From Marinifilaceae bacterium (GTDB lineage Bacteria > Bacteroidota > Bacteroidia > Bacteroidales > Marinifilaceae): a DNA stretch of 64,000 bases. The stretch spans positions 66,650-130,649 of the forward strand of contig JAGBFU010000082.1 in assembly GCA_017936285.1 (NCBI GenBank), in the 5' to 3' direction. How positions within the stretch are numbered: position 1 is the stretch's first letter; each line of letters starts with the position of its first letter. The notes beneath the pieces were generated by a model. It did not search any database. It was given only the letters and a program-made list of their open reading frames with translations, and had not been told where the DNA came from. Of the stretch, positions 3,819 to 48,150 are shown one piece after another. Both the position numbers and the translations under genes were made by a program.

Positions 3819-3820
3819 AT

Positions 3821-4222
3821 ATGAAATCGATGATAAGGATAATGTTTGTTGTTGCGACTCTATTCTCACTGGTCGCAACAACCATTATTCCTCATCATCA
3901 CCACAATGATGGCGAGACAATTTGCTCTTGCCAACATCAAGAATGTTGCCATGAGTGCCAGGAGAGTTGCCAGCACAATGAAGAGAACGATTGTTCTAAC
4001 TGCACCTGCAATACTAAAGTAAATATCGAGCAAACCAACCTTATAGCAAAGAGTTCCGTTCTGCAACTTGCTACAGATGTCATCATATCCGAGTGTTGGC
4101 CTCCTGCCAATATTGATTTAGAGAATTTCTATAGTGAACAGGGAAATTATCCGCCAAATACAATTTCTAAATATATTGTTTATCTGAAGGGGATAACACT
4201 TCGTGCTCCACCGCAATTTTAA
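3821..4222 (+). CDS. small N-terminally anchored His/Cys-rich protein (putative metal-binding accessory protein of the downstream efflux pump)
   Basis: 133-aa ORF starting 2 nt after the leuS stop. A hydrophobic N-terminus is followed by HHHHNDGETICSCQHQECCHECQESCQHNEENDCSNCTC (7 His and 9 Cys in 39 residues). Confidence 0.6.
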   Translation: MKSMIRIMFVVATLFSLVATTIIPHHHHNDGETICSCQHQECCHECQESCQHNEENDCSNCTCNTKVNIEQTNLIAKSSVLQLATDVIISECWPPANIDLENFYSEQGNYPPNTISKYIVYLKGITLRAPPQF

Positions 4223-12475: not shown

Positions 12476-12547
12476 GGTTGCGTAGTTCAATGGATAGAAT
12501 AGAGGTTTCCTAAACCTTAGATTCGGGTTCGATTCCCGGCGCGACTA
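12476..12547 (+). tRNA. tRNA-Arg (anticodon CCT)
   Basis: The cloverleaf was folded by hand and is 72 nt with no encoded CCA. Acceptor stem is GGTTGCG/CGCGACT, D stem GTTC/GAAT and anticodon stem GAGGT/ACCTT. The anticodon loop is TT-CCT-AA and the T arm is TCGGG-TTCGATT-CCCGG. Confidence 0.9.
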
Positions 12548-38850: not shown

Positions 38851-40014
38851 CTACAAAAGTACTATATTTTGTTCATACACCTCTTTCATACGCCTAAAAA
38901 ACATTTTATATCCAGCACATAGATAGTTATGACGTTCAACTCCATATAGGGTCATTGTTTCCAATACCCTATCCTTAGGACAACCACCAAAACAGATGTC
39001 AACAACATCACAGTGTAGACATTTAGAGGGAAGACTTTCCAATTTATACTCTCCGAAGGCTCTATTGCTCTCCATCATAGTATTGAGATCTGTATTCAAT
39101 ATATTACCAACTTTGTACTCATCGAATACAAATCTATCACACCGGTATACACAGCCATTATGCTCCACCACAGCACAATGGCCACAGACAGCCTCGTGAA
39201 CACAAAGTCCGGCAGGTCTGTGAGTTATATTACCAATTGCAGATTCAAATATCTGCACAAATTTTCTACCTATATCATTGACTCTCCACTCATCCAATAC
39301 ATCGCAAAGAAACTTTCCATACCCCTCAGCGGTTACATTGAATTGTGCCATTTGGCGAGGTTTCTCTATATTTGGCGAGTATATCCCCGGAGGCAAGCCT
39401 ATACCACTCTCCTCACCAACACTCTCCACAACCGGCAGGAACTGCATATAATTCGATATTGAACGTAAAAATCCATATACCTCTTTCCCATGTTCAGCAT
39501 TAATGGCATTTACTGTTGTCAGGGTATTGTATGAAACTCCATACTTCCTTAGTAGTTCCACTCCTCTCATTACCTGCATAAAGGTATCCTCATCTGAAAC
39601 ACCTTTACGAAAAGCGTTATGGAGTTGCTCCGGACCATCTATACTTATTCCTATTCGAAAATCATTATCGGCAAAGAATTTACACCACTCATCTGTAAGG
39701 AGCGTTCCATTGGTCTGCAAGGTATTCAACACTCTCCGCCCCTTTGCATATCTCTTCTGTAGTAGCAACGCCTGTTGATAAAAGGGTATTCCCGCCAAAG
39801 TTGGCTCACCTCCATGCCAAGCAAATTCAATCTCTGCACACTCTCCGTGAATCTCCACAACTTGCCTTATATAGCTCTCCAATACCTCATAACTCATTAT
39901 ACTCCTCTCCTGCCCTACACGCTTACCCAAATAGTAACAGTAGTTGCAACGAAGGTTACAGGCAGAACCTATCGGCTTTACTATTATAGCATAGTGTCTG
40001 TTACTCTCTGGCAT
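38851..40014 (-). CDS. anaerobic sulfatase-maturating enzyme (radical SAM/SPASM)
   Basis: It has the CNLRCNYCYY cluster motif plus C-terminal Cys clusters (CGHCAVVEHNGCVYRCD, CLHCDVVDICFGGCPKDR). The gene overlaps the sulfatase stop by 14 nt. Confidence 0.85.
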   Translation of the reverse strand: MPESNRHYAIIVKPIGSACNLRCNYCYYLGKRVGQERSIMSYEVLESYIRQVVEIHGECAEIEFAWHGGEPTLAGIPFYQQALLLQKRYAKGRRVLNTLQTNGTLLTDEWCKFFADNDFRIGISIDGPEQLHNAFRKGVSDEDTFMQVMRGVELLRKYGVSYNTLTTVNAINAEHGKEVYGFLRSISNYMQFLPVVESVGEESGIGLPPGIYSPNIEKPRQMAQFNVTAEGYGKFLCDVLDEWRVNDIGRKFVQIFESAIGNITHRPAGLCVHEAVCGHCAVVEHNGCVYRCDRFVFDEYKVGNILNTDLNTMMESNRAFGEYKLESLPSKCLHCDVVDICFGGCPKDRVLETMTLYGVERHNYLCAGYKMFFRRMKEVYEQNIVLL

Positions 40015-41638
40015 ATTTCATTATTCCCCCATCAAAATATTGAGTTTCACGACCATCATCCACTCCAACCTCTTGCAGGATAAGCTGATTCAACATATTG
40101 TTGTATGAATTTACCAACTCCTGGTTATTACCTTGTGGCCATGCTAAATTTTCAGTCTCGTCCGAACCATATCTGTACAACTCAACGTCGTTCATTCTAT
40201 ATAAACTCTCAATGTCGGTTGGGGTATTGAAATGGAGTGGCGAAAAGTAACGGGCAAACTTATAATTTTCGGTAATAATTCCACGCAAATAGCCTCGTTT
40301 CTCCAAGTCAACACTAATATCCATCTTAGATTCATTCACAGGCCGTACTATCATTTCTCTATCCATCATAGAGATCATATCATAAACAAAGAGTGCTCCC
40401 TGACCATTACGAACATCGGTAGCAGGGTTCTCCACCGCCGGCATAAGACTATATCCTTTAATTCCCTCTTTGATTCTATTCATCTCTGCATCATTATCGG
40501 TTGCAATATCCACAAACGTTGGGGCTAAATCCAAATGCGATGTTACATGTTGGCACGACGCACCTCCGGCAATCTCCGGATGGTATACTACCAAAGGAAC
40601 ATGTATATTATTCTCGTAAATATTACCTGCCTTTCCCTTAAGTCCGTGTGCTCCTAATAACTCGCCGTGGTCTGAAGTATATACTATAATTGTATTCTTC
40701 ATTAAATCGCAACTCTCAATCTTATCAAGCAATATCTTCATTTGGTTATCACAATCCTGAATACAATTAAAATAGTAGTCCTGGAATGTTTTCCACATTG
40801 CCTGACTATTGGGGGTAGGACCGGTTGCCCCCTCCCATGCGTCACGATACTCTCCATGAACTGCCGGACGTCCGGCTTTATCAATAGGCTCATCCCATGT
40901 TTCAGATATAGCAACCGGATAACTCTTCTTATAAACAGGATCATCGGGAGCGACAGTTGCCTGACCAAACGTTCCTCCCTCAGCCTCATTGTAGTACATT
41001 ATATCGTGAGGATTTATAAAATTCACTGCAAGAAAAAAGGATTTTCCACTCTTATTTAACTCTTTACCCTTGGTGTCCAACCATGCACAAGCGTTTTCTA
41101 CAATTTGTTTATCGTGATTAAAACCCTCTAAAGGAGAACCATACATATCACCTTCAGTCCAATCTGAAAAGCCATACTCCTCCAGGGATACATCTCCTTC
41201 AGATATATGCCACTTTCCCTTATAAGCTGTGTAGTAACCTGCTTGTCGTAGCATGTCGCCCACAGTCTTTAAATCCTTGCTCATATTGGGTTGACAGGTT
41301 AGATTTGTATTATCCATCATATGGGTTTCTGTAACATGTCGTCCAGTGTAGATTACAGAGCGAGAGGAGGTTGAAACATTTGAACAGGCATAATGTTTCT
41401 CGAATGTCGTTCCAATCTTTCTTAAACGCTCACGTGCCTCATAATCACTACCTTCAGGATAACTCTCCATATATATCTCCTGATCAGTGGTAATGAATAT
41501 AATGTTATATTTACCATCGGCATTAGTCTCTGGGTTTACAAGGGGCTTCGAATTATCTGACGTGCACCCCGGAAGCAATACAGAAAAGGGCATCAATATT
41601 GAGGCCACCTTTAAATGTTTCTCTCTTTTTGTCTTCAT
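40001..41638 (-). CDS. S1-family sulfatase lipoprotein, apparently Ser-type with an atypical S-T-S-S-R maturation motif
   Basis: I set the start at MKTKREKHL..LLPGC rather than the track start at 41677. Sulfatase blocks are present (NIIFITTDQ, KGKWH, YTSDHGE). Where canonical enzymes have C/S-x-P/A-x-R-x4-TG, this protein reads STSSRSVIYTG. Confidence 0.8.
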   Translation of the reverse strand: MKTKREKHLKVASILMPFSVLLPGCTSDNSKPLVNPETNADGKYNIIFITTDQEIYMESYPEGSDYEARERLRKIGTTFEKHYACSNVSTSSRSVIYTGRHVTETHMMDNTNLTCQPNMSKDLKTVGDMLRQAGYYTAYKGKWHISEGDVSLEEYGFSDWTEGDMYGSPLEGFNHDKQIVENACAWLDTKGKELNKSGKSFFLAVNFINPHDIMYYNEAEGGTFGQATVAPDDPVYKKSYPVAISETWDEPIDKAGRPAVHGEYRDAWEGATGPTPNSQAMWKTFQDYYFNCIQDCDNQMKILLDKIESCDLMKNTIIVYTSDHGELLGAHGLKGKAGNIYENNIHVPLVVYHPEIAGGASCQHVTSHLDLAPTFVDIATDNDAEMNRIKEGIKGYSLMPAVENPATDVRNGQGALFVYDMISMMDREMIVRPVNESKMDISVDLEKRGYLRGIITENYKFARYFSPLHFNTPTDIESLYRMNDVELYRYGSDETENLAWPQGNNQELVNSYNNMLNQLILQEVGVDDGRETQYFDGGIMKYARE

Positions 41639-41742
41639 ATCTGTAACATAATAGTTAGTTATGGCAAATTTAACCAAATTCTAAAAAAATCCAAAACAAC
41701 GTTAATAGCAATAAATTATAGAAGAATGTTATTTAAATATTG

Positions 41743-41754: not shown

Positions 41755-42312
41755 ATGAAACAGATTGCATTGTTTATAACCGTATTTTTCATCGCTACAA
41801 TTTCTCTGTCGGCTCAAAACAACAATACCGGAGAGTGGCATAAGGTAGAGAGTGGCGAAGGTGTAACTTTTACTATGCCGGGCGAGGTCTCAAAAGAGGT
41901 CTCGATTCAGGATGGAGTCCCCACATACATATTCAAGAGTCGTGATTTAAACTGCATTTTTGGAGTGGTATGCTCCAATTTCTCGGATAAACCGGAGATG
42001 CTTAAACCGGAGTATCACGGCAGTCTGGTGGAGATCTTAAAATCGGGATCTATCCCCAAAGAGGAGTATGGCAAACTGGCTGCTGAAAAACTTGTACAAA
42101 AAGAATCACCTTTGATATATGAGATTAATTACACTACCGAGAAGAATAAAATTCAGTGGAGCTATATTAAACGGTTTATAATTACCAATAGCCATATTTA
42201 CCAGTTTACGATTGGTGCAAAAACACGTAACACCGATCAGTTAAAGTTTGAAGCTATGCTCTTTTTCGATTCAATAGAACTTAAAGAGAGCAATGAAAAA
42301 GAGGCAGCCTGA
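41755..42312 (+). CDS. secreted hypothetical protein
   Basis: 185-aa ORF with a signal peptide (..ATISLSAQ). No family was recognised. Confidence 0.5.
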   Translation: MKQIALFITVFFIATISLSAQNNNTGEWHKVESGEGVTFTMPGEVSKEVSIQDGVPTYIFKSRDLNCIFGVVCSNFSDKPEMLKPEYHGSLVEILKSGSIPKEEYGKLAAEKLVQKESPLIYEINYTTEKNKIQWSYIKRFIITNSHIYQFTIGAKTRNTDQLKFEAMLFFDSIELKESNEKEAA

Positions 42313-42372: not shown

Positions 42373-43467
42373 CTATTCACTCATCAACTGAGTCTGACGA
42401 TCGATAGACGCCTGGTGAATAGCCTTGAATACCTTATCTATAAACTCTAAATCAAGGTTATTATCGCTTGCTTGTTTATGAACTTTTGCAAGAATATCAT
42501 CCCAACGACCAGACTGCAATACTGTAATATTGTTCTGCTTCTTGTAGTTTCCAATCTTCTCGGCAACTCTCATTCTACGACTCAATAATTGTATCAAATC
42601 GGTATCAAGATCATCAATGTAACTACGCAACTCATCAAGGTTCTCATTGAATTGTGTGTTATCGGTCTTGGTTGAACGAATAATCAATTTATCAACCATC
42701 GATTTCATATCGGTTGGTATGTACTGTTGTTTTGAATCACTCAATGCGATATCCGGATTATTGTGCGACTCAACCATCAAACCATCGAAGCCCAAATCCA
42801 TTGCCTTTTGTGCCAACTCGGGAATCAATTCACGCTTTCCTGCCATGTGGCTTGGATCAACAATAATCATCATCTCAGGGAATCTTCTGCGGAGCTCTAC
42901 CGGCAACTCCCATTGAGGTTGATTTCTGTATTTAGACTTTCCGTATGTAGAGAATCCACGATGGATTACACCCAACTTCTTGATTCCCGCCAAATTCAAA
43001 CGCTCCAAAGCTCCAATCCACAAATCTACATCGGGATTCACAGGGTTCTTGACCAATACCGGAATATCAACACCCTTCAAAGCATCGGCCAGCTCCTGCA
43101 TTGCAAATGGGTTTGCCGAGGTTCTTGCTCCAATCCACAACATATCCATTCCCGCCTTCAATGCCTCATAAACATGCTTGGTATTTGCAACCTCGGTGGT
43201 TATCTTCATTCCCAACTCCTTCTGAATTCTGCGCATCCAAGGCAATCCCTCAGAACCAATTCCCTCAAAACATCCGGGACGTGTACGAGGTTTCCATATT
43301 CCCGCTCTGAAAATGTTTACACCTAGCTCTTTCAACTGTTTTGCAGTGTCGAACATCTGCTCTTCACTCTCTGCACTACATGGTCCTGCAATCAAAGCAG
43401 GTATCTGCTCGCTGTCGAAAATTCCCCACTCTGACGCGGGAACTAAATCCAATTGAACATTTGCCAT
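42373..43467 (-). CDS. bifunctional 3-deoxy-7-phosphoheptulonate (DAHP) synthase / chorismate mutase type II
   Basis: The N-terminal part is a KDO8P/DAHP-synthase-like TIM barrel (IAGPCSAESEEQ). The C-terminal part is a CM_2 domain (LDELRSYIDDLDTDLIQLLSRRMRVAEKIGNYK). Confidence 0.88.
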   Translation of the reverse strand: MANVQLDLVPASEWGIFDSEQIPALIAGPCSAESEEQMFDTAKQLKELGVNIFRAGIWKPRTRPGCFEGIGSEGLPWMRRIQKELGMKITTEVANTKHVYEALKAGMDMLWIGARTSANPFAMQELADALKGVDIPVLVKNPVNPDVDLWIGALERLNLAGIKKLGVIHRGFSTYGKSKYRNQPQWELPVELRRRFPEMMIIVDPSHMAGKRELIPELAQKAMDLGFDGLMVESHNNPDIALSDSKQQYIPTDMKSMVDKLIIRSTKTDNTQFNENLDELRSYIDDLDTDLIQLLSRRMRVAEKIGNYKKQNNITVLQSGRWDDILAKVHKQASDNNLDLEFIDKVFKAIHQASIDRQTQLMSE

Positions 43468-43491: not shown

Positions 43492-44334
43492 TTATCGTAT
43501 AATCCTCTTAATCCTGTTCGCTCCTTGTATCAATTCTGTAATTGCAGCCTCGTCCATTTCATCAATTGCCCTACGGAATGCCTGAATCTTATCAATGTAA
43601 GTGTCCATCACAGCCAATACATTATCGCGATTCTGCATAAAAATAGGCACCCACATCTCGGGACTACTCTTTGCCAAACGCGCAGTAGAAGCAAATCCTC
43701 CGGCAGCAAGGTCAAATATGTGACGGTCGTTTTTCTCTCGTTCCAGTACAGTCAATGCCAAAGCATAAGAGATTACGTGTGATACGTGCGATACATAAGC
43801 AGTATGAACATCATGTTGCGCCGACGATAGATGAATCAAACGCATATTCAAAGCATCGTACATCTTCTGTATTGTGGCGAGGGCTCGCATATCACTCTCC
43901 TCTGCATCACATATAATGCCGGCTCTTCCATCAAACAATCCGCTCATAGCGGCTCTTGGACCTGAATATTCGGTTCCCGACATTGGGTGTCCCAATACAA
44001 ACTGCTTGCGATTAGGATGATACTTCACCACACTCGCAATCATTCCTTTTGTAGAGCAGACATCGGTTACAATCTGTTTCTCTGTTACTCTGTCCAGAAT
44101 TTGGGGAATAAGCTTCACTGCTCCACTTACAGGAATTGCAACAATAATGATATCACTCTCAGATATACACTCATCAAGGGTAGCAACCTGATCAACAATT
44201 CCCAAATCTTTTGCCACCTGAGCATTAAGCGGATTCTGCTCTACGCCCAATATCTTGTCGGCAAAGCCATTTTTCTTTAAGTCAATAGCTATTGAACCAC
44301 CAATAAGTCCTGTTCCTATTACACCTACAACCAT
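43492..44334 (-). CDS. tyrA: prephenate dehydrogenase
   Basis: It has an NAD-binding motif (VGVIGTGLIGGS) and HPMSG. Confidence 0.88.
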   Translation of the reverse strand: MVVGVIGTGLIGGSIAIDLKKNGFADKILGVEQNPLNAQVAKDLGIVDQVATLDECISESDIIIVAIPVSGAVKLIPQILDRVTEKQIVTDVCSTKGMIASVVKYHPNRKQFVLGHPMSGTEYSGPRAAMSGLFDGRAGIICDAEESDMRALATIQKMYDALNMRLIHLSSAQHDVHTAYVSHVSHVISYALALTVLEREKNDRHIFDLAAGGFASTARLAKSSPEMWVPIFMQNRDNVLAVMDTYIDKIQAFRRAIDEMDEAAITELIQGANRIKRIIR

Positions 44335-44343
44335 ACCAGTACT

Positions 44344-45165
44344 CTATCCAAAACTTTTATACTCACCCAATACCTCAATGTCTGCAACCAAAGGTCGAAC
44401 GGCATCGACAGCCTTTCTGTAGCGGTCAAAATCATTAAACTTTAGATCCACATAGAAGAAATATTGCCACTCCTTTCCAACTATCGGCAACGACTGTATT
44501 TTGGTCAGATTTAACTCATAGAATGAGAATATAGAGAGAATGTGCGATAAACTTCCCTGTTGGTGAGGCAATGTAAAACATAACGATGCTTTGTTTATTT
44601 CGTACGAGGGCACAGACAATCTGTCATCCATAATAAGGAACCGGGTGAAGTTCTGCTTATGTGTCTCTATACTTGGAGCCAGCACATCCAGACCAAACAT
44701 CTCTGCAGCCAACACCGACGCAATTGCACCAACACTTCTATCACCTCGCTCGGCAACTTCACGTGCAGCCGAAGCAGTATCGGAAGCCTCAACCAAACGG
44801 ATGTGTGGGTAATCTTTGAAAAATTCACGACACTGAGCAATTGCCATATAGTGAGAATGAACCTCTTTCAACTCTTCCATCTTAACACCTGGCATTACAA
44901 GCAGATTTTGGCGTATAGGAAGAAATACCTCTCCCTTGATTGCTTTACCATATTTATGAAGTAACGCATAGTTAGGAAGCAATGCTCCTGCTACCGTATT
45001 CTCAATTGCCATTATCAAACCATCGGCACGACCGTTATTTACCTGCTCAAACTCATCCTCAAAGTTGGCACATGGCAAGATTTCAACATCTTTTCCGTAA
45101 AAAATTCTTGCTGCCTCTTCGTGAAAACAGCCCTGAATACCCTGAATTGCAATTTTACTAATCAT
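44344..45165 (-). CDS. pheA: prephenate dehydratase
   Basis: It has a PDT domain (IAIQGIQGCFHEEAA, NFTRFLI) and a C-terminal ACT-like domain. Confidence 0.88.
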   Translation of the reverse strand: MISKIAIQGIQGCFHEEAARIFYGKDVEILPCANFEDEFEQVNNGRADGLIMAIENTVAGALLPNYALLHKYGKAIKGEVFLPIRQNLLVMPGVKMEELKEVHSHYMAIAQCREFFKDYPHIRLVEASDTASAAREVAERGDRSVGAIASVLAAEMFGLDVLAPSIETHKQNFTRFLIMDDRLSVPSYEINKASLCFTLPHQQGSLSHILSIFSFYELNLTKIQSLPIVGKEWQYFFYVDLKFNDFDRYRKAVDAVRPLVADIEVLGEYKSFG

Positions 45166-45176
45166 AACTCTTAATT

Positions 45177-45202
45177 AAAAAAGCCCCGAATGAACGGGGC
45201 TT
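45177..45202 (-). terminator. attenuator terminator upstream of pheA
   Basis: On the minus strand, AAGCCCCG-TTCATT-CGGGGCTT is followed by TTTT, ending 11 nt before the pheA ATG. Confidence 0.8.
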
Positions 45203-45255
45203 CAATATGATTTGGTTTATTATTTTTACTCTATATTTACATATCACGACCCCAT

Positions 45256-45321
45256 TTACTCTTTTCTGCTAAAAAAGTAAAAGTAAAAATAACCGTAGCT
45301 ATTAAATCGTGTTGACATCAT
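45256..45321 (-). CDS. Phe/Tyr-rich leader peptide (21 aa) of the pheA-tyrA-DAHPS/CM operon
   Basis: The minus-strand ORF reads ATGATGTCAACACGATTTAATAGCTACGGTTATTTTTACTTTTACTTTTTTAGCAGAAAAGAGTAA, which translates to MMSTRFNSYGYFYFYFFSRKE. It has 5 Phe and 4 Tyr, with 7 consecutive aromatic codons. Confidence 0.75.
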   Translation of the reverse strand: MMSTRFNSYGYFYFYFFSRKE

Positions 45322-45341
45322 AATCGCGCAAAATTTCACCA

Positions 45342-45349
45342 CAAATATA
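45342..45349 (-). promoter_or_regulatory. -7 promoter box (TATATTTG on the minus strand) for the leader and pheA operon
   Basis: It matches TAnnTTTG and ends 20 nt upstream of the leader ATG. Confidence 0.45.
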
Positions 45350-45462: not shown

Positions 45463-48150
45463 ATGGAGAGTAAAAACCTGTTTCTGGTCGATGCATTTGC
45501 AATGATATACAGGGCATATTATGCCTTTATCAACAATCCAAGAATTACAACTACCGGTATAAACACATCTGCAACATTCGGATTCTGTACCTTCCTGACA
45601 GAACTATTAGAGGAGCAGAAACCAACACATATTGCAGTTGTATTTGATCCCGAGGGCCCGACTTTCCGTCACGAAATGTTTCCTCAATATAAAGGACAAC
45701 GTCCTCCTATGCCCGAAGATATACGTAGTGCAATTCCATACATCAAACAGATCATTGAAGATCTGGGTATAAAACACATCTCTGTTCCTGGATATGAGGC
45801 AGACGATATTATCGGAACCCTCGCCAAAAAGGCTGAAAATGAGGGGTACCATGTATATATGATTACTCCAGACAAGGATTATGCCCAACTAGTGAGTAAA
45901 AATATCACAATGTACAAGCCAAGTCGCTCGGGTAACCTTTCAGAAACATGGGATATTCCAGAAGTTCTTGATAAATTCGGAATTGAACGTGTAGATCAGG
46001 TAATTGATATACTTGGGTTGATGGGCGATACTGCCGATAATGTACCGGGGTGTGCCGGGGTCGGCCCTAAAACTGCGGCCTCGCTCGTATATAAATATGG
46101 AGACATTGAAGGCATCTACGACCATATCGATGAACTCAAAGGGAAACAGAAGGAGAGACTTATTGAGTGTCGGGATACCGTTATGCTATCCAAGAAACTG
46201 GTTACTATATGTACATCTGTTCCTACGGATATTACTATTGACGAGCTGAAACGTGGCTCGGTTAATGGAGATGAGTTGAAATCGGTACTACAGAAACTTG
46301 AGATCTTCTCATTGGTTAACAGACTGATGAACTCGGGCAAAAGGCTTGAAGATGCCGAAGATTTAAAACATGAAGAGGACTTGCATCTGAGTGTTACAAA
46401 CTGTTCAGGTATTAAAGGTATTGTAGATAAACTATCTGCAAACGTGGCATTTGCACTGACATTTATAGAGGAGAGTAACTTTAACCTGTATGCCTCATGG
46501 CCAAAGGGAGTTATAATCAGTTCGGAAGAGAATAGTGTTGATGTAGCAACTCTGTGTTGCTCTCCAAAAGAGGAGCTTATGCAGCTTGCACCTCTCTTTG
46601 AGAATCCTGATAAGTGCTGGATTACTGCATCCGCCAAACGAGATTTACTAATTTTGAAAAGATTGGGCATTGACGTAAAGTGTAAAATTTTTGACATCAC
46701 AATTGCCCACTACATAATACAACCGGAATTGAGCCACACTCTGCAACGTATGGCTTTAGAGTTGTTACACTACCAATTTACTGCTCCACAAGGCCCAAAA
46801 CAACCTACTCAACTATCTCTTTTTGATATAGTTGAAGAGGATTATACCCAACAGGCAACCGAGTGTAACCTGATATTCAGAATATACCCTATTCTTCAGA
46901 AACAACTTGAGGAGAACAACTTTGTAAATCTGTTCTACAATGTTGAGATGCCACTGACAAAAGTTCTGGCAGATATGGAGTATGAAGGTGTTGCGGTAGA
47001 TATCAATGCTCTTAAAGAGCTATCCGATGAATACAGAGAAAAGTGCAATGCTCTTGAGAAGGCTATATACGCAGAAGCAGGACACGAATTCAACATCAAC
47101 TCTCCTAAACAGTTAGGCGATGTTCTGTTTGGAGAATTGAAACTTGATCCTCAGCAGAAAAAGACAAAAACAGGACAATTTGTAACCTCGGAACAGGTAC
47201 TCTCAAAGCTTGAAGACAACAACCCCATCGTACACTACATACTGGAATACCGAGGGTTAAAGAAACTTCTCTCTACCTATGCAGAGGCTCTGCCCGAGTA
47301 CATAAACCCTGTTGACGGCAAGATACATACCAACTTTAACCAAACAGAAACAGCTACCGGACGCCTGAGCAGCCTTAATCCTAATTTGCAAAACATCCCC
47401 ATCCGTACTGAAGATGGACGCAAAATCAGAAAGGCCTTCATCCCCGGCGACAGCGATTACTGTTTCTTCTCAGCCGACTACTCTCAGGTAGAGTTAAGAC
47501 TTATGGCCTCGCTCAGCAGAGACCCCGAGATGATCTCTGCATTCAATAACGGCGAGGATATTCACACTGCAACAGCAGCCAAAATATACAAAACCCCCAT
47601 CGAAAAAGTTACCTCGGAGATGCGACGCAGGGCAAAAACTGCGAACTTCGGAATTATATACGGAATCTCGGCATGGGGACTTGCAGAACGTCTGAAAATA
47701 AGCCGTAAAGAGGGTAAAGAGCTGATTGACGGATACTTCGATATGTATCCCGAAGTAAAACGTTATATGGAAAATTCCATAGAGCAGGCCAGAAAGCGTC
47801 GCTTTGTCGAAACTATTTTAGGACGCAGACGATACCTTAACGACATTAACTCACATAATGCCGTAGTTCGTGGAGTCGCTGAAAGAAATGCTGTTAATGC
47901 ACCTATACAAGGCTCTGCGGCAGACATTATCAAAATGGCCATGATATGTATTTGGAGTGAACTTAACAGGCGAGGTCTCAAATCAAAGATGATTTTACAG
48001 GTTCACGATGAGCTCAACTTCAAATGCCACAATAGTGAGAAAGAGATTTTAAAAGAGATTGTTACCGATTGTATGGAGAGAATTGTACAATTAAGCGTTC
48101 CCCTTACAATCAGTTGCGGATATGGAGAAAACTGGTACGAAGCACATTAA
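45463..48150 (+). CDS. polA: DNA polymerase I
   Basis: 895-aa ORF with a 5' nuclease N-terminus, polymerase motif A (DYSQVELRLMA), motif B (RRRAKTANFGIIYG) and motif C (QVHDEL). Confidence 0.96.
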   Translation: MESKNLFLVDAFAMIYRAYYAFINNPRITTTGINTSATFGFCTFLTELLEEQKPTHIAVVFDPEGPTFRHEMFPQYKGQRPPMPEDIRSAIPYIKQIIEDLGIKHISVPGYEADDIIGTLAKKAENEGYHVYMITPDKDYAQLVSKNITMYKPSRSGNLSETWDIPEVLDKFGIERVDQVIDILGLMGDTADNVPGCAGVGPKTAASLVYKYGDIEGIYDHIDELKGKQKERLIECRDTVMLSKKLVTICTSVPTDITIDELKRGSVNGDELKSVLQKLEIFSLVNRLMNSGKRLEDAEDLKHEEDLHLSVTNCSGIKGIVDKLSANVAFALTFIEESNFNLYASWPKGVIISSEENSVDVATLCCSPKEELMQLAPLFENPDKCWITASAKRDLLILKRLGIDVKCKIFDITIAHYIIQPELSHTLQRMALELLHYQFTAPQGPKQPTQLSLFDIVEEDYTQQATECNLIFRIYPILQKQLEENNFVNLFYNVEMPLTKVLADMEYEGVAVDINALKELSDEYREKCNALEKAIYAEAGHEFNINSPKQLGDVLFGELKLDPQQKKTKTGQFVTSEQVLSKLEDNNPIVHYILEYRGLKKLLSTYAEALPEYINPVDGKIHTNFNQTETATGRLSSLNPNLQNIPIRTEDGRKIRKAFIPGDSDYCFFSADYSQVELRLMASLSRDPEMISAFNNGEDIHTATAAKIYKTPIEKVTSEMRRRAKTANFGIIYGISAWGLAERLKISRKEGKELIDGYFDMYPEVKRYMENSIEQARKRRFVETILGRRRYLNDINSHNAVVRGVAERNAVNAPIQGSAADIIKMAMICIWSELNRRGLKSKMILQVHDELNFKCHNSEKEILKEIVTDCMERIVQLSVPLTISCGYGENWYEAH

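Follow-up and report, generated by a model that had tools for sequence, protein, structure and literature searches.

The window analysed here is a stretch of 64,000 nucleotides (nt) from a Marinifilaceae bacterium (assembly GCA_017936285.1, contig JAGBFU010000082.1, positions 66,650 to 130,649), and all coordinates below count from its first letter. It harbors an aromatic amino acid operon on the minus strand, preceded by a region with a promoter box, a short open reading frame (ORF) rich in Phe and Tyr (F/Y) codons and a terminator hairpin (Table 1). The three genes of the operon, pheA, tyrA and a gene coding for a fusion of DAHP synthase and chorismate mutase (DAHPS/CM), represent the Phe branch, the Tyr branch and the shared entry enzymes of the pathway; the PheA protein is 100% identical to that of a Marinifilaceae metagenome-assembled genome. 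On the other side of the leader, polA lies divergently on the plus strand (45463-48150), which rules out the hairpin before pheA as a terminator for any gene located upstream. The sequence, its predicted folding and the comparison with related loci argue with good confidence that this region is a ribosome-mediated (leader-peptide) transcription attenuator controlling the pheA-tyrA-DAHPS/CM operon.

Table 1. Features of the proposed attenuator and of the operon downstream of it (positions in the window)
Feature	Position	Strand	Sequence or pairing	Energy or evidence
Bacteroidota-type -7 promoter box	45342..45349	-	TATATTTG (TAnnTTTG)	sequence; same box type in homologous loci
Possible protector (region 1)	45314..45332	-	5' untranslated and start-codon segment UUUUGCGCGAUUAUGAUGUC with antiterminator 5' arm	-14.9 kcal/mol
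Leader ORF, 21 codons + UAA	45256..45321	-	MMSTRFNSYGYFYFYFFSRKE	ATG-initiated; open frame conserved in 60/81 loci
Regulatory codon cluster Y9, G10, Y11-F17 (proposed stall sites)	45271..45297	-	UAC GGU UAU UUU UAC UUU UAC UUU UUU	
Inner hairpin	45255..45281	-	last F/Y codons UUACUUUUUU with C-terminal codons and stop codon AAAAGAGUAA	-7.1 kcal/mol
Antiterminator 5' arm (region 2)	45240..45256	-	AAUGGGGU-CG-UGAUAUG	5' end lies within the UAA stop
Antiterminator 3' arm (region 3)	45193..45209	-	CAUAUUG-AA-GCCCCGUU	overlaps the terminator 5' arm
Intrinsic terminator (regions 3:4)	45177..45203	-	GAAGCCCCG-UUCAUU-CGGGGCUUU + U-tract	-16.2 kcal/mol; hairpin 45203..45180, U-run to 45177
pheA (prephenate dehydratase), first gene under proposed control	44344..45165	-		Pfam PF00800, E = 1.9e-53
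tyrA (prephenate dehydrogenase)	43492..44334	-		Pfam PF02153 + PF20463
DAHP synthase + chorismate mutase fusion	42373..43467	-		Pfam PF00793 + PF01817

The first-pass annotation of this DNA had proposed a TAnnTTTG box at 45349..45342, which is indeed present on the minus strand, and a 21-codon ORF at 45321..45256 in which we likewise count nine F/Y residues among the 21, a run of seven aromatic residues (Y11-F17) and no Trp. The identities it gave to the three downstream genes are those assigned by Pfam. The terminator that it placed directly before pheA, ending 11 nt ahead of the ATG (45165), is evident in the sequence and was recovered by an independent consensus terminator scan as a hairpin of 9 pairs, 6 of them G-C (2 terminator-like sites versus 0.4 expected). 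Its antiterminator pairing also stands: AAUGGGGU (45256..45249) pairs with GCCCCGUU (45200..45193) and UGAUAUG (45246..45240) with CAUAUUG (45209..45203), which is the minimum free energy (MFE) structure of the isolated segment at -14.1 kcal/mol in ViennaRNA, the trivial difference being that the 3x3 internal loop and 6 base pairs first drawn are replaced by a 2x2 loop and a second helix of 7 base pairs. The inner hairpin formed by the end of the leader ORF is compatible with the antiterminator and is therefore not a protector; it is possible that it serves as a pause hairpin for RNA polymerase. Two other candidates were set aside. A terminator-like hairpin inside pheA (45131..45110, minus strand; 8 pairs, 3 G-C) lies within coding sequence and was taken as probable chance, and the potential of GAGUAAAAAU, at ~45228-45219 within the loop of the antiterminator, to pair with the F/Y codons as well was treated as a probable A/U-rich coincidence.

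The whole leader (181 nt) has a folding z of -3.21, with 0/200 dinucleotide shuffles folding as well, and a leader profile hidden Markov model identifies exactly one copy in the window (45326..45174, E = 6.5e-18). Transcription is predicted to start near ~45336, leaving a 5' untranslated region of ~15 nt, if the offset of the mapped pheA transcription start site of Flavobacterium psychrophilum applies. A scan for sigma-70 promoters was uninformative (3 sites versus 3.2 expected); Bacteroidota use TAnnTTTG boxes.

The element is widespread among related pheA loci. Seventeen aligned PheA homologues were used to fetch such loci from GTDB representative genomes, and the 80 closest (57-98% protein identity) were retained, giving 81 with the window. 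The taxa covered are Odoribacter, Marinifilaceae, Candidatus Cryptobacteroides, Rikenellaceae and unclassified Bacteroidales; Bacteroides, Prevotella and Parabacteroides lie outside the sample. An aromatic mini-ORF (ATG start, 5 or more aromatic residues among 8 consecutive ones, at most 450 nt upstream of pheA) is present in 60 of the 81 loci, versus 14 of 1620 shuffled upstream regions (0.9%). In the 21 loci where it is missing, pheA abuts or closely trails another gene (often an RfbC-like ORF ending at -1) or has a divergent gene 19-33 nt away, and the leader is absent because there is no intergenic room upstream of pheA. Among the 60 leader-bearing loci, 58 harbor an intrinsic terminator 35-55 nt past the leader stop and 56 a TAnnTTTG box no more than 80 nt upstream of the leader ATG, and the gene order pheA-tyrA-DAHPS/CM is kept in 52 of 59 loci that carry the leader.

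The composition of the leader peptides is highly biased. Phe makes up 23.9% and Tyr 19.0% of the residues of the 55 distinct leaders (43% together), versus 3.9% and 2.5% (6.4%) in the operon proteins, and every one of the 55 contains at least two Phe and at least two Tyr residues. Both synonymous codons are used for each amino acid (TTT 150, TTC 107, TAT 156 and TAC 48 times), exchanges between Phe and Tyr are the dominant substitutions, and the last F/Y codon lies 3-4 codons ahead of the stop in 48 of the 55 leaders (4 codons in the window). This composition and spacing, read from sequence, indicate selection on codon meaning and on the distance to the stop codon. A single Trp codon stands beside the F/Y run in the proximal leaders of three loci with tandem units described below (L004, L010 and L013) and in the leader of F. 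psychrophilum (SNWFYFYFYFY, FYFYW), which hints that in some lineages the element may be sensitive to Trp supply too.

The distance from the box to the ATG varies. It is 8-9 nt in 30 of the 60 leader-bearing loci (e.g. L016, L021, L035), versus 20 nt in the window. With so short a spacing and a transcription start 6 nt past the G of the box, as mapped in F. psychrophilum, the leader ORFs of these 30 loci would be almost leaderless, their 5' untranslated region being ~2-3 nt.

The two alternative structures are conserved, with compensatory change between clades. The segment following the leader stop codon differs fully between clades and is always complementary to the terminator 5' arm of its own clade: UAA-AUGGGGU faces GCCCCGU in the clade of the window, UAA-AGGGCUU faces AAGCCCU in the distal unit of Odoribacter, and UAG-ACCGGAC faces GUCCGGU in Cryptobacteroides. 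Across loci the antiterminator arm starts 0-6 nt from the leader stop codon. The duplex of the two arms has a median energy of -14.6 kcal/mol when both come from the same locus, versus about -9 kcal/mol with arms from other clades and -8.2 +/- 3.2 kcal/mol with shuffled arms.

In an alignment of 54 sequences (A2), RNAalifold recovers the terminator (95% of cells paired) and the inner hairpin (columns 63-88; 87% of cells paired), both with compensatory changes, for example CG:28/UA:21 and UA:37/CG:10 in the inner hairpin. The two mutually exclusive conformations were mapped on A2 and their pairs counted. The termination fold (1:2 protector, inner hairpin, terminator) has 82.5% of its cells paired and a covariation of 0.335, versus 40-49% and at most 0.127 in slid controls, while the antitermination fold (inner hairpin, 2:3 antiterminator) reaches 84.8% and 0.364, versus 34-55% and at most 0.164; each was matched by 0/500 shuffles, which ignore phylogeny, and the mapped structure comes from one member sequence. 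Both the slid controls and the exchange of arms between clades speak against an artefact. Two signs that the first-pass annotation had suggested looking for in relatives, namely an aromatic mini-ORF upstream of orthologous pheA genes and compensatory change in both helices, are thus seen, the latter between clades and in the termination and antitermination folds alike.

Some features are specific to individual clades. In Cryptobacteroides, leader codons 5-11 (AUCGAUUUAGCAGCUUCGGUU) pair with the post-stop segment (GACCGGACGUUGCGUAUCGAU) to form a strong classical 1:2 protector (e.g. L021:2142-2289), corresponding to A2 columns 29-49 with 88-110 and displaying covariation. Its mean energy is -20.5 kcal/mol (z -3.1), it is significant in 34 of 42 loci, and it explains the conservation at the nucleotide level of CGATTTAGC...TTCGGTT (residues R-F-S..F-G). 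The corresponding pairing is not significant in L001 and L002, the closest relatives of the window (-9.9 and -10.2 kcal/mol, z ~-0.2). In the window itself it is marginal (z = -2.1, 5/200 shuffles being equally good), and we do not claim a window-specific protector, which these two relatives do not conserve.

Two complete F/Y attenuators are present in tandem before pheA in 11 Odoribacter/Marinifilaceae loci (L003, L004, L006-L014), spanning ~320 to 60 nt upstream of the gene (e.g. L008:3683-3809 and 3819-3967), and the window has one unit. In the distal unit (e.g. MKSFWNAYYFYFYFFSKK) the antiterminator arm is located at the stop codon. The ORF of the proximal unit (e.g. MAKYFRFSDGFYFDFYFYFKKSSRRPYILS) continues across an antiterminator arm, AGCCGG, and a separate terminator, CCCCGG, belongs to this unit. 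The cultivable species Odoribacter laneus (locus L007) carries the element.

The proposed switch would work as follows. Transcription would start a few nt past the TATATTTG box, and the 21-codon leader would be translated as the RNA emerges. When charged Phe- and Tyr-tRNA are ample, the lead ribosome would reach the UAA and cover the antiterminator 5' arm, the terminator (45203..45177) would form, and RNA polymerase would stop after ~160 nt, 11 nt before pheA. When charged Phe- and/or Tyr-tRNA is scarce, the ribosome would stall in the Y-G-Y-F-Y-F-Y-F-F cluster; since this cluster ends 4 codons before the stop, the stalled ribosome would leave the arm AAUGGGGU..UGAUAUG exposed, free to pair with CAUAUUG..GCCCCGUU before the 3' arm of the terminator has been transcribed, and the polymerase would read into the operon. 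The analysis shows the sequence elements, their conservation and covariation and the thermodynamic feasibility of each state; we infer the translation of the leader ORF, the geometry of the ribosome footprint, the co-transcriptional competition between helices and a response to Tyr in addition to Phe.

The dependence on ribosome position, already put forward in the first-pass annotation, was reproduced by constrained folding with a 30-nt ribosome mask and a nascent RNA ending just before the terminator 3' arm. For the window, a stall at F14 or F17 gives the antiterminator as MFE structure of the nascent RNA, and a ribosome placed on the UAA hides the 5' arm of the antiterminator while leaving that of the terminator free. 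A batch analysis of these states indicates that the window clade and the Odoribacter clade both switch as predicted.

Several points weigh against this picture. The terminator (-16.2 kcal/mol) beats the antiterminator (-14.1 kcal/mol) at equilibrium in every full-length state, so the switch must be kinetic and rest on an assumed order of co-transcriptional folding, as in classical attenuators. Because the window has a marginal 1:2 protector and its closest relatives have none, an untranslated leader would default to readthrough and not to termination. For many loci of Cryptobacteroides, MFE folding does not free the antiterminator when a stall at the final aromatic codon is the only constraint. 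When the upstream region is masked as well, the antiterminator becomes the MFE structure in these loci, and the apparent discord, in which the terminator arm is paired elsewhere, is due to the strong 1:2 protector helix. The footprint sizes are those of E. coli-type ribosomes, assumed for this host. Finally, the aroR leader (Phe-Tyr-Phe) of Corynebacterium glutamicum is reported, in the account given by PMC11802643, to be insensitive to Tyr supply; by analogy, the Tyr codons of the window leader may not be sensors either.

The Tyr response is indeed the weakest point of the attenuator reading: the element would read the charging of tRNA-Phe and probably that of tRNA-Tyr. It could instead sense Phe only, the Tyr codons being tolerated passengers, so that Tyr supply would not regulate the operon. 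UAU and UAC are one base away from UUU and UUC and preserve the U-richness of one strand of the inner hairpin, and since the F/Y codons sit in this conserved hairpin, part of their conservation is structural. Against such a passenger role, Tyr accounts for 19% of the residues in every clade, the minimum of two Tyr codons holds along with that of two Phe codons in all 55 leaders, and Phe and Tyr replace each other more than anything else; moreover, tyrA is within the operon in 52 of 59 loci, and the structure sets no geometric difference between a stall at a Tyr codon and one at a Phe codon. We therefore regard sensing of Phe alone as unlikely, though it deserves to be kept in mind. A more ambitious proposal, that the F/Y run is a two-input OR gate in which either starvation opens the operon, within an uncatalogued, Bacteroidota-wide and near-leaderless family that is tandem-duplicated in Odoribacter, is tentative, and we would put it at somewhat less than an even chance.

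The unit from promoter to terminator could also be an independent gene of ~160 nt, coding for a small RNA and/or an aromatic micropeptide, with the operon mRNA arising from leakage through the terminator or from another promoter. Its own promoter box, its strong terminator and the fairly well conserved sequence of the leader peptide fit this reading, and the attenuator-derived small RNA rnTrpL and leader peptide peTrpL of Sinorhizobium, to which functions in trans are attributed, provide precedents. Yet the unit is always directly upstream of pheA and is missing wherever pheA lacks free upstream space, no second copy is found within the window, the non-aromatic residues are largely accounted for by RNA pairing, and a covarying antiterminator that competes with the terminator would be purposeless in a stand-alone gene. 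These observations make an independent gene very improbable, while a role of the leader in trans in addition to attenuation is possible. Hardly any weight, slightly less still, is given to a switch operated by a factor other than the ribosome (a small-molecule riboswitch, an RNA-binding protein or an uncharged tRNA) with an incidental ORF. All such mechanisms share the alternation of terminator and antiterminator folds, and translation of the leader is a step that we infer. However, neither the window nor 14 homologous loci matched an Rfam riboswitch or T-box, A2 shows no obvious large unpaired pocket that is conserved, and such a factor would require neither the open ATG frame found in 60 of 60 loci, nor aromatic codons with synonymous variation, nor a stop codon 0-6 nt from the arm.

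The leader-peptide attenuator has no family in Rfam 15, as searched with the region at E <= 10 and with the whole window and 14 homologous loci at the gathering score. The covariance-model search that the first-pass annotation had called for thus gave no match at threshold, and the element is not catalogued there. The best match is RF01859 (Phe_leader), at 30.9 bits (E = 0.0048) versus a gathering threshold of 55, in an alignment that owes its score mostly to the terminator and the U-rich codons. No T-box or riboswitch was matched in the region at E <= 10 or in the whole window at the gathering score, and RF01692 (Bacteroid-trp leader) was matched neither in the region at E <= 10 nor in the 14 homologous loci.

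The closest described system is that of F. psychrophilum, where a mixed Phe/Tyr/Trp leader attenuator of 27 aa is annotated upstream of pheA (Guerin 2021, ISME Commun, PMC9723704, Table S7 and Supplementary Information D9), with a start site mapped 6 nt past the G of the box, a 170-nt 5' transcript and condition-dependent readthrough; the same authors report no Rfam hit for it. Like the window, this member of the Bacteroidota has a TAnnTTTG-type promoter and a short mixed-aromatic ORF (MNTNNTFYSNNSFYFYWNIGRDCYMVI) directly upstream of pheA. Folded here, it has the F/Y codons paired with a purine-rich tail in an inner hairpin, an antiterminator (GGGAUUGU:ACAAUCCC) overlapping the terminator 5' arm, and a terminator before pheA, so that its architecture corresponds to that of the window part by part. 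Its transcriptomic record, being that of an analogous element, lends indirect support to the proposed relief of premature termination by starvation. It differs in belonging to the Flavobacteriia, in a longer ORF that contains a Trp codon and extends across the antiterminator arm, and in an operon made of pheA-aspC3 and following genes. Its match to the 54-sequence profile is marginal (nhmmer, 7.9 bits, E = 2.5e-4 with 342 nt searched and a high compositional bias).

More distant parallels exist. The Escherichia coli pheL-pheA leader (RF01859) also has a leader ORF with clustered codons, a terminator shortly upstream of pheA and an antiterminator helix that excludes it, but pheL has Phe codons only and tyrA lies outside its control; the promoter type and the context of ribosome recruitment also differ, and the 1:2 protector is not clear in the window. 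The aroR-aroF leader of C. glutamicum, described as a Phe-Tyr-Phe peptide acting by ribosome stalling in response to Phe (Neshat et al. 2014, as presented in PMC11802643), resembles the window in its mixed leader and in an operon with a DAHP synthase gene. According to that same account, it differs in being from Actinobacteria, in having only three aromatic codons and in serving the common pathway and not pheA and tyrA. Within the Bacteroidota, the Bacteroid-trp leader (RF01692; Weinberg et al. 2010), a predicted leader-peptide attenuator of an aromatic amino acid operon and the sole such entry listed for the phylum, was mapped upstream of trpE in F. psychrophilum (PMC9723704); its regulatory codons are those for Trp and its target is the trp operon, unlike the Trp-free leader of the window. 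A Bacteroides pheL is mentioned in a single sentence of Gurvich et al. (2011, NAR, PMC3082878), which gives no sequence, structure or Tyr codons, and a literature search on pheL in Bacteroides returned nothing beyond this remark. Naville and Gautheret (2010) make no mention of Bacteroid*, pheA, tyrA, phenylalanine or aromatic. The window element is therefore neither a new mechanism nor the first mixed Phe/Tyr leader: the mechanism is a textbook one, of a kind already noted in the phylum, and the advance is incremental. Candidate attenuators in Bacteroidetes/Chlorobi are also said to have been reported by Vitreschak and co-workers in 2004.

A few other genes near the operon and elsewhere in the window can be mentioned. 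Near the aromatic operon, a sulfatase gene (40001-41677, minus strand) overlaps a gene coding for a radical-SAM/SPASM protein (38851-40014, minus strand), and the two look like a sulfatase/anaerobic sulfatase-maturase pair. Between the sulfatase gene and the operon, an ORF of 185 aa with no Pfam match lies on the opposite strand (41755-42312, plus strand). A tRNA gene (12476-12547, plus strand) is the sole Rfam match at the gathering score within the window.

With this element, the aromatic amino acid operon of Bacteroidia from the gut and the environment gains a regulatory annotation that is well supported, and the 54-sequence alignment, with its two supported conformations, could seed the missing Rfam family. 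Leader-peptide attenuation needs tight coupling of transcription and translation, and initiation in Bacteroidota is not driven by Shine-Dalgarno sequences; for this reason these elements, many of whose leaders appear almost leaderless, are convenient natural reporters of coupling. If the OR gate proposed above is real, it would differ from aroR of C. glutamicum, where Phe alone counts, and the tandem duplication in Odoribacter would multiply the termination decision. The family would then be a tractable system for studying transcription-translation coupling in a phylum without Shine-Dalgarno-led initiation.

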